This document shows, in pieces, positions 15,272-42,952 of a stretch of 64,000 nucleotides of DNA. Source of the stretch: Thermodesulfobacteriota bacterium. GTDB lineage: Bacteria > Desulfobacterota > Desulfobacteria > Desulfobacterales > SURF-7. Below the pieces are notes generated by a model. The model was not told the origin of the DNA. It worked only from the letters and a program-made list of their open reading frames with translations, and did not search any database. The translations under genes and the position numbers were made by a program. Location: NCBI GenBank assembly GCA_049320885.1, contig JBMORA010000035.1:39054-103053 (forward strand), read 5' to 3'. Position 1 is the first letter of the stretch. The number at the start of each line of letters is the position of its first letter.

Positions 15272-16945
<1,674 letters not shown>

Positions 16946-17104: not shown

Positions 17105-17205
17105 TTGCATCGCCGACAATTCTGATATTGGCGGCACTCAGCTTGAAATGATCACGAAACTCCTGAAAATATGTTGGCTCGGTTTTCCCGCCTTCACTGA
17201 GCGGG

Positions 17206-17415
17206 GTGGAACTCCAGCCGGAAATCGAGCAGCGGTATTTGAACGAGATCAAACTGTCCACCTGTCCTCAAATCATGCCAATCCGGGACGGTTATACGGC
17301 GCTGATAAATAAGGGTATGATTGAGATGACCATTCCCGACAACCCGAGGAGCCGGTTGCAGAAATACCGGCTTACCGAAAAAGGCAAGGCGCTCCTATCC
17401 GTCAAGGGAAGGTGA
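17206..17415 (+). pseudogene. C-terminal remnant of a Schlafen/AlbA_2-type ATP-binding regulator
   Basis: ...ALINKGMIEMTIPDNPRSRLQKYRLTEKGKALL is the tail I associate with AlbA_2/HATPase_c_4 regulators. There is no upstream coding continuation (a stop lies just before it). Confidence 0.4.
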
Positions 17416-17948: not shown

Positions 17949-17987
17949 CTATCCACAGATGATGCAGATTAACACAGATGAAAACCG
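17949..17987 (+). repeat. CACAGAT-type arm, forward orientation
   Basis: ACTATCCACAGATGATGCAGATTAACACAGATGAAAACCG, just upstream of the DUF1016 gene. Confidence 0.7.
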
Positions 17988-18050
17988 TAACAATAAGCTG
18001 CGCGAATCTTCGAAACCCGCAGATTCAAACCATTTTGTGGAGGTCAGTAA

Positions 18051-27664: not shown

Positions 27665-27843
27665 CTCACACGAAGGCACGAAGACACGAAGTTTTGAAAA
27701 CAGTCGTTATACCCGCGAAGGCGGGTACCCAGATTCGTGGCAACGATTTATCCAACGGCTTGCTGCACTATTTCCAATTATTCAGACCGGGAGGGGGGTA
27801 TGACCAGTTCGTCCTCCTTCGTGCCTTCGTGTCTTCGTGTGAG
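27665..27843. repeat. CACGAAG-type inverted repeat pair without cargo
   Basis: Left arm 27665-27691 is CTCACACGAAGGCACGAAGACACGAAG. Right arm 27817-27843 is CTTCGTGCCTTCGTGTCTTCGTGTGAG. The 125-nt interior holds the hairpin ACCCGC-GAAG-GCGGGT (27711-27726) and GGGAGGGGGGTATG, which is the hsdS SD and start. Confidence 0.85.
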
Positions 27844-29842
27844 CGATCTGCTGGAACAGCATTTCGACACCGCCTTTGCCGCGCCTGCCGGTATCGCCAA
27901 ACTGCGCGAGTTGATCTTGACCCTCGCCATGCAGGGCAAGCTGGTGGAACAGGACCCGAACGACCCACCCGCCAGCGAGTTGCTGAAGGAGATCGAAGCC
28001 GAAAAACAGCAGCTTGTGAAAGCGGGCAAGATTAAAAAGCCCAAGCCGCTGCCGCCCATTAAGCCGGAGGAAGTGCCCTACGAACTGCCGGAGGGATGGG
28101 AGTGGGCGAGGCTCGGTGAAATAACTGAATACAACGGTCGAAAAAATATCTCGGGCGATGAGATAGCCCCCGATACATGGTTGCTTGATCTCGAAGACAT
28201 TGAAAAGGGAACTTCTCGTATTCTGTTCCGAGCAAAGTTTTCAGAGCGCCAATCAAAATCTACGAAATCAACCTTTCAGAAAGGTGATGTGCTTTATGGC
28301 AAACTTCGTCCCTATCTCGACAAGGTTGTGGTAGCAGATGCTGATGGAGTTTGCACGACTGAGATTGTGCCCATCGTTCCGTTTAACGGAATACATTCTG
28401 AATTTCTCAGGTGGTTACTAAAGCGCCCTGCATTTATAACCCATGTTAACTCTCTCATGTATGGCGTCAAAATGCCCAGGCTTGGCACAGATGATGCTTT
28501 AACGAGTATTCACCCGCTTCCCCCCCTCCCCGAACAACACCGCATCGTCGCCCGCATCAACCAGTTGATGACCCGTTGTGATGAGTTGGAAAAGCTGCAC
28601 AAACAGCGGGAGGAGAAGCGGCTGGCCGTCCACGCCGCCGCCATCAAGCAACTGCTCGACCCGCCGGACCTGTCTGCCGGCCAGGCAGGCGGCTCGGCCT
28701 GGGACTTTATCCAACAGCACTTCGACGACCTCTACACCGTCAAGGAAAACGTCGCCGAACTGCGCAAGGCCATCCTCCAACTCGCCGTAATGGGCCGCCT
28801 CGTTCCCCCTGCCTGCCGGCAGGCAGGCAAGACCCCAACGACCCTCCCACCACCAGAACCTGGATCATGGTGGGTGTACGTTATTGAGTGCGAAAATGGA
28901 TCATTCTATAAAGGTTTTACAGAAGATCTTCCGCGTCGCTGGCGGCAACATCTATCAGGTACTGCGAGCGAATGGACAAAAAAGCATCCACCCAAACAGG
29001 TTTACTACTGGGAAAAATGTTTTTCAAAAGAAGCAGCCATTAAGCGGGAAGACTATTTGAAATCAGGCTTTGGTCGAGAATGGTTCAAGCGCGAGGTGGT
29101 TGATAATCAAAAAGCATGGCAGACCGCCAGCGAACTGCTCAAAGAGATCGAAGCCGAAAAACAGCGACTGATGAAGGCAGGTAAAATCAAGAAGCCCAAG
29201 CCCGTACCGCCCATCAAGCCGGAGGAAGTGCCCTACCAACTGCCGCAGGGCTGGGAGTGGGTGCGATTTGGAAAAGTTGCGAGCAACCGACTAGGAAAAA
29301 TGCTCGATAAATCTAAGAATCGAGGTAACCCAAAACCATATTTGAGAAATACCAATGTTCAATGGCATCAGTTTGTTCTTGATGATGTCAAAGAGATGAA
29401 ATTCGAAGATGAAGAGCTTGATGAATTTCGTGTACTTCCCGGTGACCTTCTAATATGCGAAGGTGGTGAACCCGGTCGCTGTGCAATATGGCGCGATTCA
29501 GAGGTAGAAATCTATTTCCAGAAAGCCATACATAGAGCGAGGCCGTTTTCGTGCGTTACTTCTGAGTATCTGCAAGTTTGCCTTACAAACGATGGGGGTA
29601 ACGGTCAGTTGGAAAAGTATTTCACTGGGGCAACAATCAAGCATTTCCCTGGTGACAAGCTTAATGGGTATGTCATTCCTCTACCACCTCTTCCCGAACA
29701 ACACCGCATCGTCGCCCGCATCGATCAGTTGATGGCCCTGTGCGACACACTCGACCAGCAGATCGACGCTGCCACCGGCAAAAAGACCGAACTGCTGGAC
29801 GCCGTGATGGCCCGCCTGTCGGCAGACACGGCCCAGGTATAA
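27800..29842 (+). CDS. hsdS: Type I R-M specificity subunit with a GIY-YIG nuclease domain embedded in the central conserved region
   Basis: Two TRDs, each preceded by ASELLKEIEAEKQ.L.KAGKIKKPKP.PPIKPEEVPY.LP.GWEW and followed by LPPLPEQHRIVARI.QLM. Between them sits WWVYVIECENGSFYKGFTEDLPRRWRQHLSG...QVYYWEKCFSKEAAIKREDYLKSGFGREW (GIY-YIG/UPF0213-like). Start set at ATG 27800, behind GGGAGGGGGG. Confidence 0.85.
   Translation: MTSSSSFVPSCLRVSDLLEQHFDTAFAAPAGIAKLRELILTLAMQGKLVEQDPNDPPASELLKEIEAEKQQLVKAGKIKKPKPLPPIKPEEVPYELPEGWEWARLGEITEYNGRKNISGDEIAPDTWLLDLEDIEKGTSRILFRAKFSERQSKSTKSTFQKGDVLYGKLRPYLDKVVVADADGVCTTEIVPIVPFNGIHSEFLRWLLKRPAFITHVNSLMYGVKMPRLGTDDALTSIHPLPPLPEQHRIVARINQLMTRCDELEKLHKQREEKRLAVHAAAIKQLLDPPDLSAGQAGGSAWDFIQQHFDDLYTVKENVAELRKAILQLAVMGRLVPPACRQAGKTPTTLPPPEPGSWWVYVIECENGSFYKGFTEDLPRRWRQHLSGTASEWTKKHPPKQVYYWEKCFSKEAAIKREDYLKSGFGREWFKREVVDNQKAWQTASELLKEIEAEKQRLMKAGKIKKPKPVPPIKPEEVPYQLPQGWEWVRFGKVASNRLGKMLDKSKNRGNPKPYLRNTNVQWHQFVLDDVKEMKFEDEELDEFRVLPGDLLICEGGEPGRCAIWRDSEVEIYFQKAIHRARPFSCVTSEYLQVCLTNDGGNGQLEKYFTGATIKHFPGDKLNGYVIPLPPLPEQHRIVARIDQLMALCDTLDQQIDAATGKKTELLDAVMARLSADTAQV
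28808..28827. repeat. Perfect 20-nt palindrome CCTGCCTGCCGGCAGGCAGG inside hsdS
   Basis: Read directly from the sequence. It lies between CTCGTTCCC (LVP) and CAAGACCCCAACGACCCTCCC, which would encode QDPNDPP only in the +2 frame. Confidence 0.9.
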
Positions 29843-31413: not shown

Positions 31414-31594
31414 GCCTGGTTGTTTTTGGAGTGAAGGACTCGGGGCTTGAGCAGATCGTCGCGGCTGATCCGCATCAGTTCCGGCTCAATATGGGGGGCG
31501 TGACCGAGAACCGGAAAAATTCATACCAGCAGGCCCGGGAATATTTCTACCAGTTGATGAACCGCATCCACAATCACAAACCGAATCAGAGTCA
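31414..31594 (+). pseudogene. NERD-domain gene fragment (third copy), continuing from 29965-29981 across the IS
   Basis: LVVFGVKDSGLEQIVAADPHQFRLNMGGVTENRKNSYQQAREYFYQLMNRI aligns with residues ~57-107 of the NERD proteins at 32443 and 38124. Homology ends at ~31570. Confidence 0.7.
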
Positions 31595-32063
31595 GACTTA
31601 CCCGCAATGCTCGGGTCCGTGGAATTATGGAGGCCGTGACGAATGCATGATACGACCAAGCCATTGATGGTTAGCGAGGATAGTGTTTCATATGGGGGGG
31701 AAAAGCCATGATGACCCTTCGGCTTTTCTCCGGGAAATTTGAATCCGTGCCGGCCGCCACATCCTGGTACTTGGCAGACCTTGGCGAGGCGCGTGGCAAA
31801 CAGGAATTGTTTACCCGTCAATCGCCGCAGCGTCTCAAGGCTTTGCGGGAGCACGCCCTCATTGAAAGCGCCGTATCATCCAACCGGATCGAGGGCGTGG
31901 AGGTCGAGCAATCCCGAATCGCCACCATCGTCTTCGGCCAGCCGCTTCTGCGGGACCGTGATGAGGAGGAAGTCCGGGGATACCGGCAGGCCCTGACCTG
32001 GATTCATGAGCAAGGGGCGAAAATCCCGATATCGGAAGAGACCGTTTTACAGCTCCATCATAT
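31595..32063 (+). repeat. 469-bp direct repeat, copy 1 (fic upstream region and Fic N-terminal domain)
   Basis: Colinear with 34809-35277 at equal length. I count about five substitutions and no net indel. Confidence 0.85.
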
Positions 32064-32442: not shown

Positions 32443-32931
32443 ATGGCCCAAATGATTCCGCCTGATGTTGAGACCTTCACAACCGATGGCGAAAGGCAGT
32501 TCTACCGATTTTTGGAAGCGGTCGCCAAGCCGGATTCGAATTTTATCGCCTGGTATACGCCGAACATTGACGGGAAGGAGCCGGATTTCGTTCTTTTCGG
32601 CAATACTGTCGGCCTGGTTGTTTTTGAAGTGAAGGACTGGGGGCTTGAGCAGATCGTCGCGGCTGATAAGCATCAGTTCCGGCTCATTATGGGGGGCGTG
32701 ACCGAGAACCGAAAAAATCCTTACCGGCAGGCCCGGGAATATTTTTACCAGCTGATGAACCGCATCGAGCAGGACGGGCGGCTGGTATCGCAGGAGCCGG
32801 GACATCATGGCAAGCTCCGGATACCGATCACCTGCGGCGTCATCTTTCCCAACATCAATAAATACGAGTATTCCCAAAAAGGCTTGGACATAAAAATTGC
32901 CCATTATTCACTATTCGAATCAGGAGAATAG
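32443..32931 (+). pseudogene. NERD-domain gene truncated after ~150 codons (second copy)
   Basis: MAQMIPPDVETFTTDGERQFYRFLEAVAKPDSNFIAWYTPNIDGKEPDFVLFGNTVGLVVFEVKDWGLEQIV... is nearly identical to the first ~150 aa of 38124..39995. It diverges after YSQKGLD (~32893) and stops. Confidence 0.75.
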
Positions 32932-34419
32932 ATGATGGATCGCTTTGATCTTCTCAGTTTTGATGAAGGGAAAACCCTGGAATTCAAGCGGGACCTCTCG
33001 TCACCCAAAGCATTCTTGAAGACACTGGTGGCTTTTGCTAACACGGCGGGCGGTAAAATCATCATCGGCGTGGAGGACAAGACGCGCCGGCCTGTTGGTG
33101 TGCAGCATCCCCTGGATGAAGAGGAAAAATTGTGTAATCTGATCGCCGATTCCATTAGTCCACGCCTGGTGCCCAATGTGGAAATGGTAACGGTGGACAA
33201 CAAGACCCTCCTGATCGCCGAAGTCTTCTTAAGCAATTCACGGCCCCATTGGCTCAAAGCGGAAGGACCGGAAAACGGCGTCTATGTCCGACTCGGTTCC
33301 ACCAACCGCCAGGCGGACCGGGAACTCATCGCGGAGTTGCGTCGGTCGGTGGAAGGGGTTGCTTTTGATGAAATGCCGTTGCCGGAAATGTCCGTTGACG
33401 ATCTGGATTTGGCCGCCGCCCGGAAAGTATTCCAGGGGCGCCGCAAACTGGATAAGCAAGAATTGCTGACACTGAAATTGCTGCGTAAAGACCAGGGGAA
33501 ACTAGTCCCGACCAAGGGCGCTGTGCTTTTATTCGGAAAAGAGCGCGTTTTCCATTTCCCGGATTCCTGGGTGTAGTGCGGCCGCTTTATCGGCCGGGAC
33601 AAAACTGATATCTTCGATCATATTGATTTGGACGAGCCCTTGCCGCAACTGGTGGAGAGCATCCTGTTGTTTCTGAAAAAGCATGCCATGCGCGGTGCCG
33701 ATTTCTCCGAAATTCGGCGGAAGGATGTCTGGAGTATCCCCCTCGGGATTCTGCGGGAGGCGGTGATCAATGCCCTGGTGCATGCTGACTATTCCCAGCG
33801 CGGCGCTCCGATCCGCATCGCCTTTTACGATGACCGCATTGAAATCGAAAACCCGGGGATCCTGATGCCGGGCATGACCATCGAGGATATGAAGCAGGGG
33901 GTCTCCAAGATCCGCAATCCGGTGATCGCCAGGGTTTTCCGAGAACTGAAACTCATTGAACAATGGGGCAGCGGCGTGCGCAATATCCTCCGGGTCGCCC
34001 AGGAACAAAACCTGCCGGAGCCCATTTACGAAGAAATCGGCATGCGGCTTCGTTTGAGCGTGTTCCTTGCAGAACCGCAGGTTCTTTCCAAAATTCAGGC
34101 CGGGTCCAGGTCCATAACTGTCCAAAAGAGTCTTGAGGAAACCAAGGGGGGGGTGCCAAATCAAGAGCAGTGGGCTAAACGGTGGGGTGAAAAGTGGGGT
34201 AAAAAGTGGGGTGAAACCATGATGGCCAAGCGGCTTACGATTGCTCGCGCCATGCAGCGCAATCCGCGCATTTCAACCTCGGAGCTGGCCGCACACTTGG
34301 ATATGGGAACTACTGGTGTGGAGAAGCATTTAAAAATATTGCGTGAAAATGGATGTATCCGACGGATCGGTCCAGCCAAGGGCGGTCGCTGGGAAGTGTT
34401 GGAAGACGGGGATGAATAA
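32932..34419 (+). pseudogene. Schlafen/AlbA_2, HATPase_c_4 and wHTH regulator interrupted by one in-frame TAG
   Basis: ORFs 32932..33576 (LEFKRDLSSPKAFLKTLVAFANTAGGKIIIGV = AlbA_2) and 33628..34419 (LREAVINALVHADYSQRGAPIRIAFYDDRIEIENPG...IEQWGSGV; C-terminal wHTH) are in the same frame. The only stop between them is TAG at 33574-33576 (FPDSWV*CGRFIGRDK). Confidence 0.8.
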
Positions 34420-34580: not shown

Positions 34581-34808
34581 GAACGCGAGGGCTGAAACTG
34601 TGTTTGGCGAAAATGTAACGATCAGCTAAAACGCCTGAAATAGGACGGGGATGCCTTGCTGTTCGACTTGAAATATAGCGTTGGACCGCTGAAAAATACG
34701 GAATCAGGTTCCATGGATTATCAGGCGCTCAAAAAACTGATACAGGAAGTCAAAACCGACCGGCTGGAAATTGCCAGTCCCGGCGGTCTTCGGTTCAGGT
34801 CTACCGAA

Positions 34809-35277
34809 GACTTACCCGCAATGCTCGGGTCCGTGGAATTATGGAGGCCGTGACGAATGCACGATACGAACAAGCCATTGATGGTTAGCGAGGATAGTGT
34901 TTCATATGGGGGGGGAAAGCCATGATGACCCTTCGGCTTTTCTCCGGGAAATTTGAATCCGTGCCGGCCGCCACATCCTGGTACTTGGCAGACCTTGGCG
35001 AGGCGCGTGGCAAACAGGAATTGTTTACCCGTCAATCGCCGAAGCGTCTCAAGGCTTTGCGGGAGCACGCCCTCATTGAAAGCGCCGTATCATCCAACCG
35101 GATCGAGGGCGTGGAGGTCGAGCAATCCCGAATCGCCACCATCGTCTTCGGCCAGCCGCTTCTGCGGGACCGTGATGAGGAGGAAGTCCGGGGATACCGG
35201 CAGGCCCTGACCTGGATTCATGAGCAAGGGGCGAAAATCCCGATATCGGAAGAGACCGTTTTACAGCTCCATCATAT
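34809..35277 (+). repeat. 469-bp direct repeat, copy 2
   Basis: See 31595-32063. Here the left neighbour is a fragment resembling an HATPase_c_4 region (DRLEIASPGGL) rather than the NERD fragment. Confidence 0.85.
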
Positions 35278-37889: not shown

Positions 37890-37930
37890 AAAGAGTGGAT
37901 CAATATAGTTTTGCCTCCGGCGGGAAAAGC

Positions 37931-38066
37931 GGGTTATCCACAGATGACACAGATTGACACAGATTAAAAACAAAAAAGAAGGGTTCTTTTGCCTCCGGCA
38001 GGGAAAAGGATATCATTTTTTTCAGTTATCTGTGTAAATCGGTGTAATCGGTGGATATAAAAAAAC
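37931..38066 (+). repeat. CACAGAT-type intergenic element, copy A (left arm, centre, right arm)
   Basis: Left arm GGGTTATCCACAGATGACACAGATTGACACAGATTAAAAAC. Centre with TTTTGCCTCCGGCAGGGAAAAG. Right arm TCAGTTATCTGTGTAAATCGGTGTAATCGGTGGATATAAAAAAAC. Confidence 0.85.
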
Positions 38067-38123
38067 ATGCCTCCTAAAATGTAAAGAAGCAAATGAAGGT
38101 ACTGCAACGAATAAGGCGCGCAT

Positions 38124-39995
38124 ATGGCACAAATGATCCCACCCGATGTTGAAACCTTCACGACCGAAGGCGAAAAGCAGTTCTACCGGTTCCTGGAAAA
38201 TGTCGGCAAGCCGGATTCGAATTTTATCGCCTGGTATACGCCGAACATCGATGGGAAGGAGCCGGATTTCGTGCTTTTCGGCAGTACCGTCGGCCTGCTT
38301 GTTTTTGAAGTGAAGGACTGGGGGCTTGAGCAGATCGTCGCGGCTGATAAGCATCAGTTCCGGCTCATTATGGGGGGCGTGACCGAGAACCGGAAAAATC
38401 CTTACCGGCAGGCCCGGGAATATTTCTACCAGCTGATGAACCGCATCGAGCAGGACGGGCGGCTTGTCTCGCAGGAGCCGGGACATCACGGCAAACCCCG
38501 CATACCGATCACCTGCGGCGTCATCTTTCCCAACATCAATAAATACGAGTATTCCCAAAAAGGCCTGGACAACATCATCGGCGCGACCAAGATCCTCTTC
38601 TGGGACGATCTGCACACCGCCTCGGATATTTGCACGGATCCGTCCGGCAAATGTTTCCAGGATGCCCTGGAAAACATGTTCGAGCATCGATTCCGTTTTT
38701 CCGTCACGGTCAAGGAACTGGATCACCTGAAACAGCTGATTTTTCCCCTGGTGAAAATCGAATTGCCGGAACGGAAGGGGCAGGACACGTTTCAGCACCA
38801 TCTGAACCGGCTCAAATCGATTGATCACCATCAAGAAGCCCTGGCCCGCAGGTTCGACGGCGGCCACCGGATCATCAGCGGACCTTCGGGCAGCGGGAAA
38901 ACCCTCATTCTGGTCCATAAGGCCGCGTTCCTGAAACAATACAATCCCGCGATACATCGCCTATTGTTCGTCTGCTACAACATCACGCTTGTGAATTATA
39001 TCCGGCGGCTGCTGGCGGCCAAGGGCGTGCCCCTGGGGAAAAACGGCGTTGATGTTTGTCACATCTTCGAGCTTTGTTCCCTAATCGTCGGTGAATCCGT
39101 TCCGTATGAAAACGAGGATGCCGATTATTACGATCTGGTTGTCCAGGAAGCGCTGGCCAGGGTGGCGACTTGCGGAATCCGCTATGACGCCATCCTGGTG
39201 GACGAAGGCCAGGACATGTCCGGCGATATGTACCGGGTCATTACGGCTCTTCTCAATCCGCAGACCAATCACCTGACCATCGTGCATGATGAAAACCAGA
39301 ACATCTATCGAAAAAGCCATACGTGGAAAGATGTCGGTGTCCATGCCCGCGGGCGTGTTCACCGGATTTCCTATATTTACCGGAACACCATGGAAATAAC
39401 GAATTTCGCCGCGCGGTTTTTGGACGCCTCGCCGGTGGACGGCCAGGGGGGCAACCGCGGGCAACTGGAATTGTTTCCGGATTTTTTTGATTTTCATGGA
39501 CCCGAGCCCGAGCTGATCCCATGCGGCGGGCTGGAACCGCTGCTGAATGTTATCGCCGGCAAGATCGACACATTGAGCCGTCACAACGGCCTGCCGTTCT
39601 CGGAGATCGCCGTGCTGTATTCCATGAAAACTCCCGGACGCCTCAATGGTGTCAACCTGCCCCTGGCGATCCGGGAACGCCTCGAAGGCGCCGGCATCTT
39701 GTGCACCTGGACGACCGAGAATTACCAGGCCAAACGATCCTATGATATCACGACCGACAGCGTCAGCATCAGCACCATTCACAGCGCCAAGGGATTGGAT
39801 TATGCCTGTGTCTTTCTTGTCGGGCTGGATTTTATCGAAACAGAGCGATGGTCCGAGGAGCAGATCCAAAAACTGACCTATGTGGGCATCACCCGGGCGC
39901 GCTACCAATTATTCATTCCCTTTATCGATGAATGCGAATTGATCCGGAACCTTTTGAAAGCGAAAAAAGATGGAGGTCAATCAAGATATTCTTAA
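38124..39995 (+). CDS. NERD-domain nuclease fused to a UvrD/SF1-like helicase
   Basis: 623 aa. NERD N-terminus (EPDFVLFGSTVGLLVFEVKDW). Walker A IISGPSGSGKTLILV. Walker B AILVDEGQDM. UvrD_C-like SISTIHSAKGLDYACVFLVG...YVGITRARYQLFIPF. Confidence 0.85.
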   Translation: MAQMIPPDVETFTTEGEKQFYRFLENVGKPDSNFIAWYTPNIDGKEPDFVLFGSTVGLLVFEVKDWGLEQIVAADKHQFRLIMGGVTENRKNPYRQAREYFYQLMNRIEQDGRLVSQEPGHHGKPRIPITCGVIFPNINKYEYSQKGLDNIIGATKILFWDDLHTASDICTDPSGKCFQDALENMFEHRFRFSVTVKELDHLKQLIFPLVKIELPERKGQDTFQHHLNRLKSIDHHQEALARRFDGGHRIISGPSGSGKTLILVHKAAFLKQYNPAIHRLLFVCYNITLVNYIRRLLAAKGVPLGKNGVDVCHIFELCSLIVGESVPYENEDADYYDLVVQEALARVATCGIRYDAILVDEGQDMSGDMYRVITALLNPQTNHLTIVHDENQNIYRKSHTWKDVGVHARGRVHRISYIYRNTMEITNFAARFLDASPVDGQGGNRGQLELFPDFFDFHGPEPELIPCGGLEPLLNVIAGKIDTLSRHNGLPFSEIAVLYSMKTPGRLNGVNLPLAIRERLEGAGILCTWTTENYQAKRSYDITTDSVSISTIHSAKGLDYACVFLVGLDFIETERWSEEQIQKLTYVGITRARYQLFIPFIDECELIRNLLKAKKDGGQSRYS

Positions 39996-40026
39996 GAAAC
40001 GGAGTGCGGTTACCGGTGGCCAGGAC

Positions 40027-40161
40027 GGTTTATCCACAGATTACACAGATGGACACAGATGAAAAACGAAAAAAGTTGCATTATTCTGCCTCCGGCAGGA
40101 AAAGAATATCATTTTTTTCAGTTATCTGTGTAAATCGGCGTAATCGGCGGATAGAAAAAAG
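40027..40161 (+). repeat. CACAGAT-type intergenic element, copy B
   Basis: Left arm GGTTTATCCACAGATTACACAGATGGACACAGATGAAAAAC. Centre ...TTCTGCCTCCGGCAGGAAAAG... Right arm TCAGTTATCTGTGTAAATCGGCGTAATCGGCGGATAGAAAAAAG. Confidence 0.85.
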
Positions 40162-40307
40162 TATGCCTTATAAAATTATCTGTGACCGTATCTGACACAC
40201 CAATCTGATATTGAATGACGGTATTCGGCATTGGGGCGGTACTGGGCTGAACCGAGATACCAGGCCGATTTTCCCACCCATGATGATCGAAACCGAAAGG
40301 GAGGTAA

Positions 40308-41246
40308 ATGTCAGATTATATTTTCAAGCATGTCACGGACAAAATCCTTGCGCAACTTGAAAAAGGGAACGTCGTTTGGAAAAAACCATGGACCAGCAAC
40401 GGGCTGCCGAGGAACCTCATTTCCAAACGCCCTTACAGCGGTATCAACTGGCTGCTGTTGGCAATGGCGGGGTTTGCATCACCTTTTTGGGCCACAAAAG
40501 AAGCGGTAGGTAAATTGGGAGGGAGGGTTCGTCCTGGTGAGTTGCCTGAGTTTGTCTTTTTCTGGAAGATTCAAAATTTGGAACGCCCCGAGGGGGAGGA
40601 AGGAGACCAGAGCCACCAGTCGCGTATTAGCATTTTTTACAAGGCTTACCAACTCTATAACGTGGAGCAGTGCGAAGGCATCGAGAAAAGGGTTCCCCCC
40701 TTTGTGCACCATGATTTCGACCCGATCGACAAATGCGAAAAGATTGTGAAAGATATGCCAGCCTGCCCGAAAATCTCCTATGGGGTTCCGGATCCTTACT
40801 ACACCTCATTGATGGACGAGGTGAAAATGCCCTCTCGGAAACTTTTCAGTGATACGGGGGAATTTTACTCGGCACTCTTTCACGAAATCGTGCACAGCAC
40901 CGGCCACGAGCGCCGCCTCGGCCGCCACGGGCGGATGCGCGAGAAGTTTGACAGCCATGAGCATAGGTACTCCCACGAGGAACTGGTGGCTGAGATCGGT
41001 TCCGGATTTTTGTGCGCCCATGCGGGAATCGAAAACCACGTGTTAGAGAATTCCGGCGCCTATATCCAACATTGGATAAAACGTTTTGAAAATAGGCAGC
41101 GGATGTTTTTTTTCGCTGCGGCGCAGGCGCAAAGTGCGGTGAATTACATTCTTGGTCTGGGGAAAACAGGTTATCCACAGATTACACAGATGGACACAGA
41201 TGAAAAACAAGAAGGCCAGCATATTTTGCCCCCGGCAGGGAAATAA
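40308..41246 (+). CDS. ardC: ArdC-like antirestriction protein (N-terminal ssDNA-binding DUF1738 domain plus zincin metalloprotease)
   Basis: ILAQLEKGNVVWKKPW...RPYSGINWLLL...FWATKEAVGKLGGRVRPGE...YKAYQLYNVEQCEG. Metalloprotease motif LFHEIVHSTGH. The last ~25 codons (GYPQITQMDTDEKQEGQHILPPAGK) translate the repeat element, so the native C-terminus has been replaced. Confidence 0.8.
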   Translation: MSDYIFKHVTDKILAQLEKGNVVWKKPWTSNGLPRNLISKRPYSGINWLLLAMAGFASPFWATKEAVGKLGGRVRPGELPEFVFFWKIQNLERPEGEEGDQSHQSRISIFYKAYQLYNVEQCEGIEKRVPPFVHHDFDPIDKCEKIVKDMPACPKISYGVPDPYYTSLMDEVKMPSRKLFSDTGEFYSALFHEIVHSTGHERRLGRHGRMREKFDSHEHRYSHEELVAEIGSGFLCAHAGIENHVLENSGAYIQHWIKRFENRQRMFFFAAAQAQSAVNYILGLGKTGYPQITQMDTDEKQEGQHILPPAGK

Positions 41247-41305
41247 TTGTTTTATTTTTTTAATTATCTGCGTGAATCGGCGTAATCGGCGGATAGAAAA
41301 AAAGC
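41168..41305 (+). repeat. CACAGAT-type intergenic element, copy C
   Basis: Left arm AGGTTATCCACAGATTACACAGATGGACACAGATGAAAAAC. Centre ...TTTTGCCCCCGGCAGGGAAAT... Right arm TTAATTATCTGCGTGAATCGGCGTAATCGGCGGATAGAAAAAAAGC. Confidence 0.85.
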
Positions 41306-42952
41306 ATGCGTCATAGAATCATCTGTGATCGTATCGGATCAACAACGGAAGGCGGACATGGCAGAGCTGAAAAAATGCATGGAACAGCAGCAAGAGGAAT
41401 CCTGCACCATCCAATGCGCCATCAATCTTTCCATGCTGTTCGATTCATCGGTGCAACGAAAACGCTTCAACCAGAAAAAGAACTATCCGAAGAACGACGG
41501 GCAGTGAAAGAATTCATCACCCGTGATCCCCTGTTGAGCCGCTTCGTGTCCAAGGTATTTCTCTTCGAAGATATTCCTGCCGCAGACCGCAAACCGGATG
41601 ATATCTATCTGCATGAGGTCGAGCAGTGCGATATTTACCTTGCGATCCTGGGCAAACAATACGGGTGGAAAGGCGTGGATGGTAAATCCCCGACGGAACT
41701 GGAATTTGAACAAGCCACCCGAACCCATCGGGAGCGCCTCGTCTTTGTGAAAGGAGACGATGACAAATCCCGCGAACCGGAAATGGCAAAACTGGTGAAC
41801 AAAGCGGGCCGACAGGTCACGCGGCGGCGTTTTTCCGATACACCCGGCCTGATCCGTGAGGTCTATGCCAGCTTGATAGAATGCCTGGAGGGCAGGGGGG
41901 ATTTCCGATCAACACCCTTTGACGACAGCGTTTGTGACGGGGCGACCCTCCAGGATATCGACACTGCGGAAGTCGACGCTTTTGTCGAAACCGCCGAAGC
42001 CGCCGGCCGGTTGAGCCTCAAAGGCGCGCGCACACCCAAAGCGGTCCTGCAGCATTTCAATCTCCTTCGGGACGGCCGGCCCACCAACGCCGCCATGCTG
42101 CTTTTCGGGAAGCGGCCAGAGGTGTTTTTCAACAACGCCCAAGTGCATTGTTTTCATTTCCTTGGAACGGAAAAACGCAAGCCCATTGCCTCCCAGCAGC
42201 CATATTCCGGCAGATTGCGGGAAGTCATCGACCAGGCCGTGGAGTTCGTTCTCGGCAAGATCGACCGCAGCGTGGGAACCCGCGCCATGGGAGTGCAAGC
42301 GCCGGTCAAGTTCGAGATTCCCCGCCCGGTCATCACCGAAGCCATTGTCAACGCAGTCGCCCATCGGAACTACCGTCATAATGGCTTCGTCCAGGTAATC
42401 GTGTTTGCCGACCGCATCGAGGTGTGGAACCCGGGAGAACTCCCGCCAGGATTGACCCCCGCGCTGTTGCGGGAGCCCCATGGCCCCATACCGCGCAACC
42501 CCTTGATCGCCGAGCCGTTGTTCCGGGTGAAATACGTAGAGAAAGCCGGCACCGGCACAACGGATATGATCGCCGATTGCCGGGAAGCGGGACTTCCGGA
42601 GCCGGACTTCGGACAGCGCGGCCCCCATTTTGTGGTTACCATCTGGCGGGACTGGCTGACGGAGGATGTCATTGGTTCATTAGGACTCAACGATCGCCAA
42701 CAAAGGGTTTTAATTCACCTCAAGGTCCGTGGACGGATCGGAAACACTGAATACCAGACATTGGTTGGTGTATCCAAACGTACGGCGCATCGAGACCTTA
42801 TTGAACTTGTGGAGAAGGGAATTGTAGAAAAGGTTGGTACTACAGGCAAGGGAACCGTATATATCTTGCGAAAAGGGGCCCAAAAGGGGCCAGAGGGGCC
42901 AACTGAATCCAAAGATGTCAAAGGGGCCACAAAGGGGTCAAAGGGGTCATAA
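41306..42952 (+). CDS. DUF4062 (TIR-like) fused to a Schlafen/AlbA_2, HATPase_c_4 and wHTH protein; the 5' end may be frameshifted
   Basis: DUF4062-like KELSEERRAVKEFI...VEQCDIYLAILGKQYGW...SPTELEFEQA...RLVFVK. AlbA_2-like middle part. HATPase_c_4-like ITEAIVNAVAHRNYRHNGFVQVIVFADRIEVWNPGELP...VEKAGTGT. C-terminal wHTH NTEYQTLVGVSKRTAHRDLIELVEKGIVEKVG. The listed ATG 41306 lies inside the repeat element. An SD-preceded ATG at 41358 is in the +1 frame. Confidence 0.75.
   Translation: MRHRIICDRIGSTTEGGHGRAEKMHGTAARGILHHPMRHQSFHAVRFIGATKTLQPEKELSEERRAVKEFITRDPLLSRFVSKVFLFEDIPAADRKPDDIYLHEVEQCDIYLAILGKQYGWKGVDGKSPTELEFEQATRTHRERLVFVKGDDDKSREPEMAKLVNKAGRQVTRRRFSDTPGLIREVYASLIECLEGRGDFRSTPFDDSVCDGATLQDIDTAEVDAFVETAEAAGRLSLKGARTPKAVLQHFNLLRDGRPTNAAMLLFGKRPEVFFNNAQVHCFHFLGTEKRKPIASQQPYSGRLREVIDQAVEFVLGKIDRSVGTRAMGVQAPVKFEIPRPVITEAIVNAVAHRNYRHNGFVQVIVFADRIEVWNPGELPPGLTPALLREPHGPIPRNPLIAEPLFRVKYVEKAGTGTTDMIADCREAGLPEPDFGQRGPHFVVTIWRDWLTEDVIGSLGLNDRQQRVLIHLKVRGRIGNTEYQTLVGVSKRTAHRDLIELVEKGIVEKVGTTGKGTVYILRKGAQKGPEGPTESKDVKGATKGSKGS

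Follow-up and report, generated by a model that had tools for sequence, protein, structure and literature searches.

The gene considered here lies at 41306-42952 on the plus strand of a 64,000-nucleotide (nt) stretch of contig JBMORA010000035.1 (hereafter the window), from a metagenome-assembled genome (MAG) of a Thermodesulfobacteriota bacterium. It closes a ~26-kb defence island situated between GroEL (15272-16855, minus strand) and a sigma-54 response regulator (43509). A first-pass annotation, made from the sequence alone, had described it as a DUF4062 (TIR-like) domain fused to a Schlafen-type ATPase and a helix-turn-helix (HTH) region, with a probable frameshift in an A-tract at its 5′ end. 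Overall, that observation was partly confirmed and its interpretation partly supported: the gene is a fusion with a split 5′ end, but the nature of the split is probably different.

The gene and its reading frames

An open reading frame (ORF) of 548 amino acids (aa) is present at 41306-42952 (plus strand), and the peptide strings quoted from it in the annotation were found in it. The proposed fusion of DUF4062 to a Schlafen-type ATPase and HTH stands: Pfam placed DUF4062 (PF13271) at aa 58-137 (64.4 bits, cut-off 24.7, profile positions 9-82 of 82) and HATPase_c_4 (PF13749) at aa 361-446 (75.7 bits, cut-off 26), followed by weak winged-HTH matches at aa 461-512. The AlbA_2 domain (PF04326) that had also been assigned to this ORF was not recovered by Pfam at E<=0.1. 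BLASTP against the window's own AlbA_2 gene (32932-34419) gave an alignment restricted to the post-AlbA_2 linker and the ATPase, in which the aligned post-AlbA_2 region of that gene's product covers residues 130-214 and the ATPase matches at 2e-18. Judged by these comparisons, DUF4062 takes the place of AlbA_2 ahead of the linker, GHKL ATPase and HTH, and is not added to it. The features of the locus are as follows.

41159-41345: copy of a ~180-nt repeat element
41306: ATG, the mechanical start of the 548-aa ORF, inside this repeat copy
41347-41352, plus strand: Shine-Dalgarno (SD)-like GGAAGG, 5 nt 5′ of ATG 41358, read directly from the sequence
41358-41507, plus strand: frame-0 ORF of 49 codons (MAELKK...NDGQ*), with stop TGA at 41505-41507
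41436-41456, plus strand: LFDSSVQ, relic of the TIR-like first strand and SS motif, in the ATG-41358 frame (family [LIV]F[IVL]SSVQ)
41457-41476, plus strand: 20 extra nt, CGAAAACGCTTCAACCAGAA, from codon-level comparison with homologous loci L001, L003, L006 and L007
41472-41480, plus strand: CAG AAA AAG in frame 0, the proposed slip site, with its A5 run at 41475-41479
41477-42952, plus strand: gene body, from ungapped global alignment to the intact homologue P0005
41477-41893, plus strand: remainder of the DUF4062/TIR-like NADase domain, helix A to helix E (PF13271)
41504-41506, plus strand: GTG start of NCBI's 482-aa 'ATP-binding protein', overlapping the frame-0 stop (GTGA)
41696-41698, plus strand: putative catalytic Glu of S-P-T-E, with a second invariant Glu at 41702-41704
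42068-42655, plus strand: GHKL-type ATPase region, with the HATPase_c_4 core at 42386-42643
42338 and 42350, plus strand: Glu and Asn of the N-box, with Gly of the G-box at 42548 and 42554, all mapped from the family alignment
42662-42868, plus strand: C-terminal winged HTH, from weak Pfam, NCBIfam and PADLOC HTH matches
42869-42949, plus strand: Lys/Gly-rich low-complexity tail, KGAQKGPEGPTESKDVKGATKGSKGS, from the translation

ATG 41306 lies inside the repeat as had been noted, but it is not the only ATG of the body frame, which also contains 41375 and 41414. The second frame behaves as described, with ATG 41358 following GGAAGG and the frame closing at 41507 after 49 codons; the A5 tract is likewise present, while CAGAAAAAGAAC, where the two frames were to be joined, lies at 41472-41483 and not at 41471-41482. 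In GenBank the gene appears as two proteins. The frame-0 ORF is matched exactly by P0271 (ACOZF0_15385), labelled as a separate hypothetical protein, and P0001 (482 aa, starting MKEFITRD) is 100% identical to the product from GTG 41504, in which strand A and roughly half of helix A are missing (secondary structure from an AlphaFold2 model of P0005). NCBI's 49-aa hypothetical protein and 482-aa 'ATP-binding protein' are pieces of one broken gene. The body is colinear with intact homologues from Lys18 to residue 475 of its 491 aa, the last 16 residues being unaligned; similar Lys/Gly-rich tails are found in many homologues, and the end of the model has low predicted local distance difference test (pLDDT) values.

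The first 25 residues of the frame-0 ORF have no relative among 5.8 billion proteins, and neither the MAELKK... leader nor RKRFNQK occurs in any other protein of this collection, where NCBI's 49-aa protein is the sole exact match. A resemblance of the leader (MAELKKCMEQ...) to the C-terminus of type III-like Res proteins (...AEFNKMIEQ...) was considered as a possible relic and rejected as unproven: the profile match scored 0.3 bits (E ~0.1 in a search space of three sequences) and lies partly inside the repeat element.

The frame break and the sister copy

Intact relatives begin, without exception, with M-x(3-12)-[LIV]-F-[IVL]-S-S-V-Q-K-E-L-x-x-E-R-R-A-V-K. In the window the two halves of this sequence are separated: LFDSSVQ lies in the ATG-41358 frame, and KELSEERRAVK is read in the body frame from 41477, out of frame with it. 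The pattern F.SS[VI]Q occurs once in a six-frame translation of the 64 kb (41439-41456, frame 0), against a chance expectation of ~2e-4 in the 180 upstream positions, and the LFDSSVQ relic is therefore genuine and the gene truly split, as the first-pass annotation had claimed for its 5′ end. The relic is itself degenerate. Its Asp sits where all relatives have Ile, Val or Leu, and the first Ser codon of the SS motif is TCA, where AGY is used in all 52 relatives read as DNA; each of these 52 homologous loci is in frame.

Exactly 3 residues separate F[IVL]SS from [DE][LF]xxER in each of 204 relatives (119/119 close ones and 85/85 distant ones, the latter being representatives at <=50% identity), and the same spacing is found in the anti-phage protein KpSwz. 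The window copy does not hold the strand-A motif and a 3-residue spacer in one frame. Codon-level comparison shows 20 extra nt at this point, present in none of the homologues, whose placement is ambiguous by 2 nt (41455-41474 to 41457-41476) owing to AA at both flanks; on this comparison, they are the actual cause of the frame break. The DUF4062 match of the window ORF (64.4 bits, profile 9-82) changes little when one A is added (67.0 bits, 9-82) or when a CAA-to-CAA hop is imposed (67.8 bits, 9-82), rises to 74.4 bits (5-82) when the 20 nt are removed, and reaches 83.2 bits (1-82) in P0273, an intact sister copy. The 20-mer at 41457-41476 was found nowhere else in the window (<=3 mismatches), in 84 loci or in a metagenome scan, and the absence of a copy from the window and the 84 loci therefore leaves it with no template or duplication source. 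Exact and gapped DNA pattern scans of metagenome and genome collections for the lesion with its flanks likewise gave no match, so that no second copy of the junction was seen.

P0273 is the one other member of the 90% identity cluster headed by P0001. It carries the same organism (MAG) name, has a GenBank accession 1,085 away, is encoded on a 51.6-kb contig and is intact (MSTRYKIFISSVQKELSEERR...). Over the 393 residues that start at Lys18 and finish with the ATPase, P0273 and the window copy disagree at 5 (98.7% identity). The next best homologue is 89% identical, and the HTH tails of the two copies are only 51% identical. The near-identical tract starts at the first codon after the lesion and stops at the ATPase/HTH boundary. 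Because the lesion coincides with the start of this tract, the break is best read as a recombination or gene-conversion boundary and not as a homopolymer slip.

The state of the body is consistent with this. All family-invariant residues are kept, with no sign of decay: no deviation occurs at 183 near-invariant columns, and 5 occur at 299 columns with >=90% conservation, where intact members average 7.1. A recombination or gene-conversion boundary would be expected to leave a pristine body beside a multiply damaged 5′ end, which neither gradual pseudogene decay nor a homopolymer error would. We therefore favour the view that the locus is probably an inactive copy of a DUF4062-GHKL-HTH gene with a rearranged 5′ end. 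From 5′ to 3′ it would consist of the repeat element, a unique leader, the degenerate LFDSSVQ strand, a 20-nt filler and the family body from 41477 (Lys18). As strand A and the remaining TIR-like fold are not encoded in any one frame, this copy cannot make a full NADase domain and has most likely been inactivated recently.

Competing accounts of the split frame

Several points weigh against this reading. That P0273 and the window copy belong to one genome is deduced from the shared name and the proximity of the accessions, and the boundary of the tract shared with P0273 is known at the protein level only. In addition, the body is as conserved as that of intact relatives, so any inactivation must be very recent, or the product must still be useful. 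Finally, the contig is metagenome-assembled, and a mis-join could have occurred at the border of the 1.2-kb core that is 99% identical to a paralogue listed under the same MAG name. The 5′ flank belonging to one locus would then precede the body of a near-identical paralogue, and the real gene or genes may be intact. Such a chimera is unlikely, although the 98.7%-identical core of a protein with the same MAG name starts exactly at the break, and many family members are found on contigs of 2-3 kb, as is usual where assemblies break at repeats. The 20-nt filler and the LFDSSVQ relic are beyond an assembler's invention, so the junction must exist on some molecule of the sample; the 5′ end is out of frame whatever body comes after it, and the core differs from the sister at 5 residues, hence two sequences were resolved as distinct. 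We give slightly less credence to a gene that is functional as annotated, in which a 482-aa protein made from GTG 41504, possibly by termination-reinitiation at GTGA, would have a GHKL-HTH role without NADase activity, perhaps in regulation or perhaps as the intact sister's partner or decoy. This is exactly the call of the NCBI pipeline, the GTG overlaps the frame-0 stop, and the GHKL and HTH parts are intact. However, the remainder of DUF4062, including both invariant Glu residues, is conserved like the ATPase, which is unexpected if only the C-terminal half is selected (recent gene conversion would account for this equally well). The overlap is uninformative, as GTG and TGA are forced by the A-V-K coding conserved in all homologues, and a domain without strand A would be unlikely to fold, to judge from the model.

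The explanations offered by the first-pass annotation fared less well. If the true sequence were A6 and the assembly A5, through a one-nucleotide deletion or a sequencing error, the protein would read ...LFDSSVQRKRFNQKKELSEERR..., with 7 lineage-specific residues inserted into the loop that connects strand A to helix A. One A added at 41475-41479 does join both frames, ATG 41358 has a good SD, and the body is fully conserved, as it would be in an intact gene. Nevertheless, the repaired peptide, SSVQRKRFNQKKELSEERR, is not the typical DUF4062 start for which it was taken, since it has 10 residues where all relatives have 3: the homologue alignment that had been suggested as a check shows 204 relatives keeping the upstream motif with its 3-residue spacer, none of them (0/204), nor KpSwz, has an insertion at that loop, and the one-nucleotide repair does not fit. 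Nor does the repair lengthen the Pfam match (67.0 bits, 9-82, compared with 74.4 for removal of the 20 nt) or take the Asp out of the core strand, and RKRFNQK in this context is absent from the 5.8-billion protein collection. It also requires two events, a 21-nt insertion and then a one-nucleotide loss, where a single 20-nt event suffices, and a normal SSVQKEL is read in the sister copy, whose 98.7% identity starts at the next codon. On an unsystematic inspection, the window's other long genes run without interruption, and homopolymer errors hence seem not to be pervasive. Taken together, a lost A is an improbable explanation, more so than a protein starting at the GTG. A slippage-dependent gene is far less probable again. 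Here ribosomes starting at ATG 41358 would either shift by -1 on CAG_AAA_AAG (41472-41480) or jump between two CAA codons, from 41454 to 41468. As a deliberate split, equally far-fetched in our estimation, the usual outcome would be a stop after 49 codons, and the rare -1 slip would serve as the safety catch on a suicidal NADase-ATPase-HTH effector. A_AAG is a shift-prone tetranucleotide in bacteria, as in dnaX and IS3-type sites; it is present here behind a good SD and ATG 41358, and a -1 shift on it leads into the body frame. The likeness to dnaX/IS3-type -1 sites is limited to this A-rich run ending in AAG at the frame junction. The heptamer, G_AAA_AAG (41474-41480), is not of the X_XXY_YYZ form, and the P-site tRNA would be unable to re-pair. 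No stimulatory structure was found, the fold of 41481-41560 (80 nt) being no better than shuffles (z +0.39), and the two-frame arrangement is conserved in no relative. The products would keep a spacing foreign to the family (10 or 5 residues, compared with 3) without an improved Pfam match (67.0 and 67.8 bits, 9-82). The CAA-to-CAA bypass was rejected on these grounds, as it gives SSVQPEKEL, and a precise 20-nt bypass lacks a matching pair of take-off and landing codons.

Architecture, family and defence island

The structure modelled with AlphaFold2 was that of the intact homologue P0005 and not that of the window copy (pLDDT 91.2, predicted template modelling score 0.74). Its N-terminal domain is a five-stranded alpha/beta fold (strands 9-13, 41-45, 70-75, 103-109 and 133-136) of the TIR-like, flavodoxin-like type with a parallel sheet, in which strand A occupies residues 9-13 and helix A 18-33. 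A central alpha/beta region follows, and a winged HTH occupies residues 413-481, with helices at 423-463 and a hairpin at 467-481. Foldseek searches with this model matched the N-terminal domain to the TIR folds of SARM1, RPS4, IL-18R-beta and TIR-STING and also to the nucleoside deoxyribosyltransferase (NDT) fold, with target-normalised TM-scores of 0.5-0.59 for SARM1, RPS4, IL-18R-beta TIR and NDT. DIP2311 (3LMM) was matched at E 6e-16, and the ATPase region also matched histidine-kinase and PDK structures.

DUF4062 has been described as a TIR-like NADase in phage defence and abortive infection, and KpSwz (Swarozyc) and Eva01 (Evangelion) are single-gene DUF4062 anti-phage NADase systems; KpSwz requires E97, and the Eva01 mutants F11A and E87A lose defence (10.64898/2026.05.01.722283; 10.64898/2026.06.25.731849; PDB 10wc). 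The window copy retains the SPTELEF motif, and in a phmmer alignment to KpSwz (PDB 10wc) the Glu of SPTE falls on chain Glu82, which we infer to be the native catalytic E97, assuming a 15-residue offset (a construct from residue 15/16). The Glu matching KpSwz E97 and Eva01 E87 is thus kept at 41696-41698, and the matching Phe is carried by the detached frame. PF13749 has been shown to be a GHKL ATPase, and in Schlafen-pAgo ATP binding via E314/N318 drives tetramerisation and effector assembly (10.64898/2026.05.29.728809). The same E-x3-N motif and the G-box are invariant in the DUF4062-GHKL-HTH family (reference RzAgo E314/N318): E305, N309, G375 and G377 are invariant in family alignment A2, and all four are present in the window. 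The HTH matches of the window copy fall under curated cut-offs (HTH_DeoR 20.8, cut-off 21), and HTH_24 passes in P0273 (24.6, cut-off 21.9). The HTH is a swappable module, with cores 78-99% identical to the window and tails 27-80% identical, of several discrete types (P0002-P0120, P0273); this exchange resembles that of target-recognition domains in the specificity subunits of restriction-modification (R-M) systems.

KpSwz and Eva01 share with this family the N-terminal DUF4062/TIR-like domain, with its F-x-S-S strand-A motif and S-x-T-E Glu region, the joining of effector and auxiliary region in one polypeptide, and a setting of defence islands and horizontal spread. The auxiliary region of KpSwz is unrelated, phmmer aligning residues 7-108 only, with an insignificant second stretch; here the auxiliary part is a GHKL ATPase and winged HTH, and the window copy has its strand A detached. 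The two reports of these systems (10.64898/2026.05.01.722283; 10.64898/2026.06.25.731849) mention neither a DUF4062-GHKL-HTH fusion nor HATPase, GHKL or Schlafen; 10.64898/2026.09.04.749371, on a 'NIR' domain, lies outside this comparison. A second likeness is to the SLFN+GHKL unit named 'Schlatpase', which is mostly carried by small proteins that have either no additional domain or a short HTH at the C-terminus (10.64898/2026.05.29.728809). Schlatpase-HTH proteins, of which DIP2311 (3LMM) is one, and the supradomain at the N-terminus of Runella zeae SLFN-pAgo have a homologous linker, GHKL ATPase (E-x3-N, G-box) and C-terminal HTH, and are often embedded in R-M loci like the DUF4062-GHKL-HTH genes. 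In contrast, a TIR-like NADase here stands in for the AlbA_2/Schlafen nuclease, and the expected effect would be depletion of NAD+ in place of tRNA cleavage. DUF4062 is also found directly N-terminal to an oligomerising ATPase, its proposed switch, in TEP1/NWD1-type proteins of eukaryotes and bacteria, but the ATPase here is a Bergerat-fold GHKL and not STAND/NACHT, there is no WD40/TROVE, and the protein is ~490 aa long.

By analogy with these systems, the HTH of an intact protein, or its link to neighbouring R-M enzymes, would sense foreign DNA; ATP-driven oligomerisation of the GHKL region could then bring the TIR-like domains together, and their clustering would switch on NAD+ hydrolysis and lead to abortive infection. 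An intact DUF4062-GHKL-HTH gene is accordingly named here as a plausible single-gene defence candidate, with a putative role in phage protection.

The family is large. At E<1e-10 there are more than 3,769 matching clusters (90% identity), of which the best 120 are 73-82% identical, 460-540 aa long and all of the DUF4062 + HATPase_c_4 type. With clustering at 50%, the matches number 13,767 at E<=1e-3; the 734 that reach E<=1e-30 include AlbA_2-type relatives aligned over the C-terminal part only. Loci at 66-86% identity come from MAGs with the labels Desulfobacterota, Verrucomicrobiota/Kiritimatiellota/Lentisphaerota, Planctomycetota, Acidobacteriota and Sumerlaeota, which points to wide horizontal spread under strong constraint. 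A scan of viral contigs found no close relatives.

The neighbourhood analysis that had been suggested was made on a sample of ~10 homologue loci, with no statistical enrichment test, and found R-M and helicase genes as repeated company. In L006 and L013 the homologue is followed by an N6_N4 methylase and overlaps with a ResIII/RE_endonuc gene at that gene's end; it lies between an SNF2 helicase and an MmeI-like methylase in L083, adjoins a type I R-M system in L082, and is found among AlbA_2 genes and a Mu-like transposase in L081. In L003 (7784-8020), L005 (145-381) and L057, a small upstream ORF represents only the C-terminal ~70 residues of the 1,024-aa ResIII/RE_endonuc protein found ahead of the homologue in L006 and L013. 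The DUF4062-GHKL gene thus seems to move together with a type III-like restriction enzyme and to persist after the enzyme is lost.

In the window, the island contains a Fic-like_C remnant, DUF1016, AAA_14/DUF4143, HNH, IS3, AbiEi/AbiEii, NERD-UvrD and ArdC (40308-41246) genes, and a type I R-M system with a second DUF1016 gene and a GIY-YIG-HsdS gene. Where two other Schlafen-type genes had been reported, one was found, the AlbA_2-GHKL-HTH gene at 32932-34419, together with a remnant at 17167-17412. The former has a single in-frame TAG at 33574-33576 (..SWV*CGRFIG..) followed by 280 more codons and is a probable nonsense pseudogene; the latter, an 82-aa ORF at the left edge of the island, adjoining a partial repeat arm, matches Fic-like proteins in their C-terminal part only (Fic-like_C, 3.5e-10) and is also called a Fic-like_C/HTH remnant. 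Several damaged genes fit a decaying island. The first ~100 codons of NERD-UvrD (38124-38423) are duplicated, at 92% nt identity, in a truncated 162-aa ORF (32443-32931) immediately upstream of the AlbA_2 gene, and a separate 300-nt segment (31594-31893) is repeated at 34808-35107 with 99% identity; both are signs of recent rearrangement of the island. The HsdS gene (27737-29842) encodes a 701-aa fusion with an internal GIY-YIG nuclease domain and contains internal direct repeats at 27969/29124 and 28514/29678 that are 84-85% identical.

The repeat element that holds ATG 41306 is present in three copies, with a further partial arm:

37922-38085: ~180-nt repeat copy
40018-40200: ~180-nt repeat copy
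41159-41345: ~180-nt repeat copy, listed above
17950-17993: partial arm

The copies lie in the gaps directly upstream of three consecutive plus-strand genes (NERD-UvrD, ArdC and the gene described here), and ATG 41306 is conserved in 3/3 of them (ATGCCT/ATGCGT). The element forms a long imperfect hairpin, with arm TTATCCACAGATTACACAGATGGACACAGATG against CTGCGTGAATCGGCGTAATCGGCGGATAG and regularly spaced mismatches; folds of -45.7 kcal/mol (z -2.4) and -47 kcal/mol (z -3.0) were obtained, the minus strand folding slightly better. It has no Rfam match, and its arm pattern is absent from the homologues' loci. An integron attC site was considered and rejected on inspection, since the ends GTTATCC ... 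GGATAG do not fit GTTRRRY / RYYYAAC.

For the locus itself, the result is mostly corrective: the 'A-tract frameshift' would be a rearrangement scar in a probably dead copy, and a frameshift as such is ordinary. For the family, more than 3,700 clusters at 90% identity carry a TIR-like NADase where Schlafen-GHKL-HTH proteins have a tRNA nuclease. If ATP-driven GHKL oligomerisation does lead to NAD+ depletion, these proteins would link DUF4062 NADases to the Schlatpase switch, both discoveries of 2026, and would offer a compact, experimentally tractable case of effector exchange on a shared sensor scaffold.

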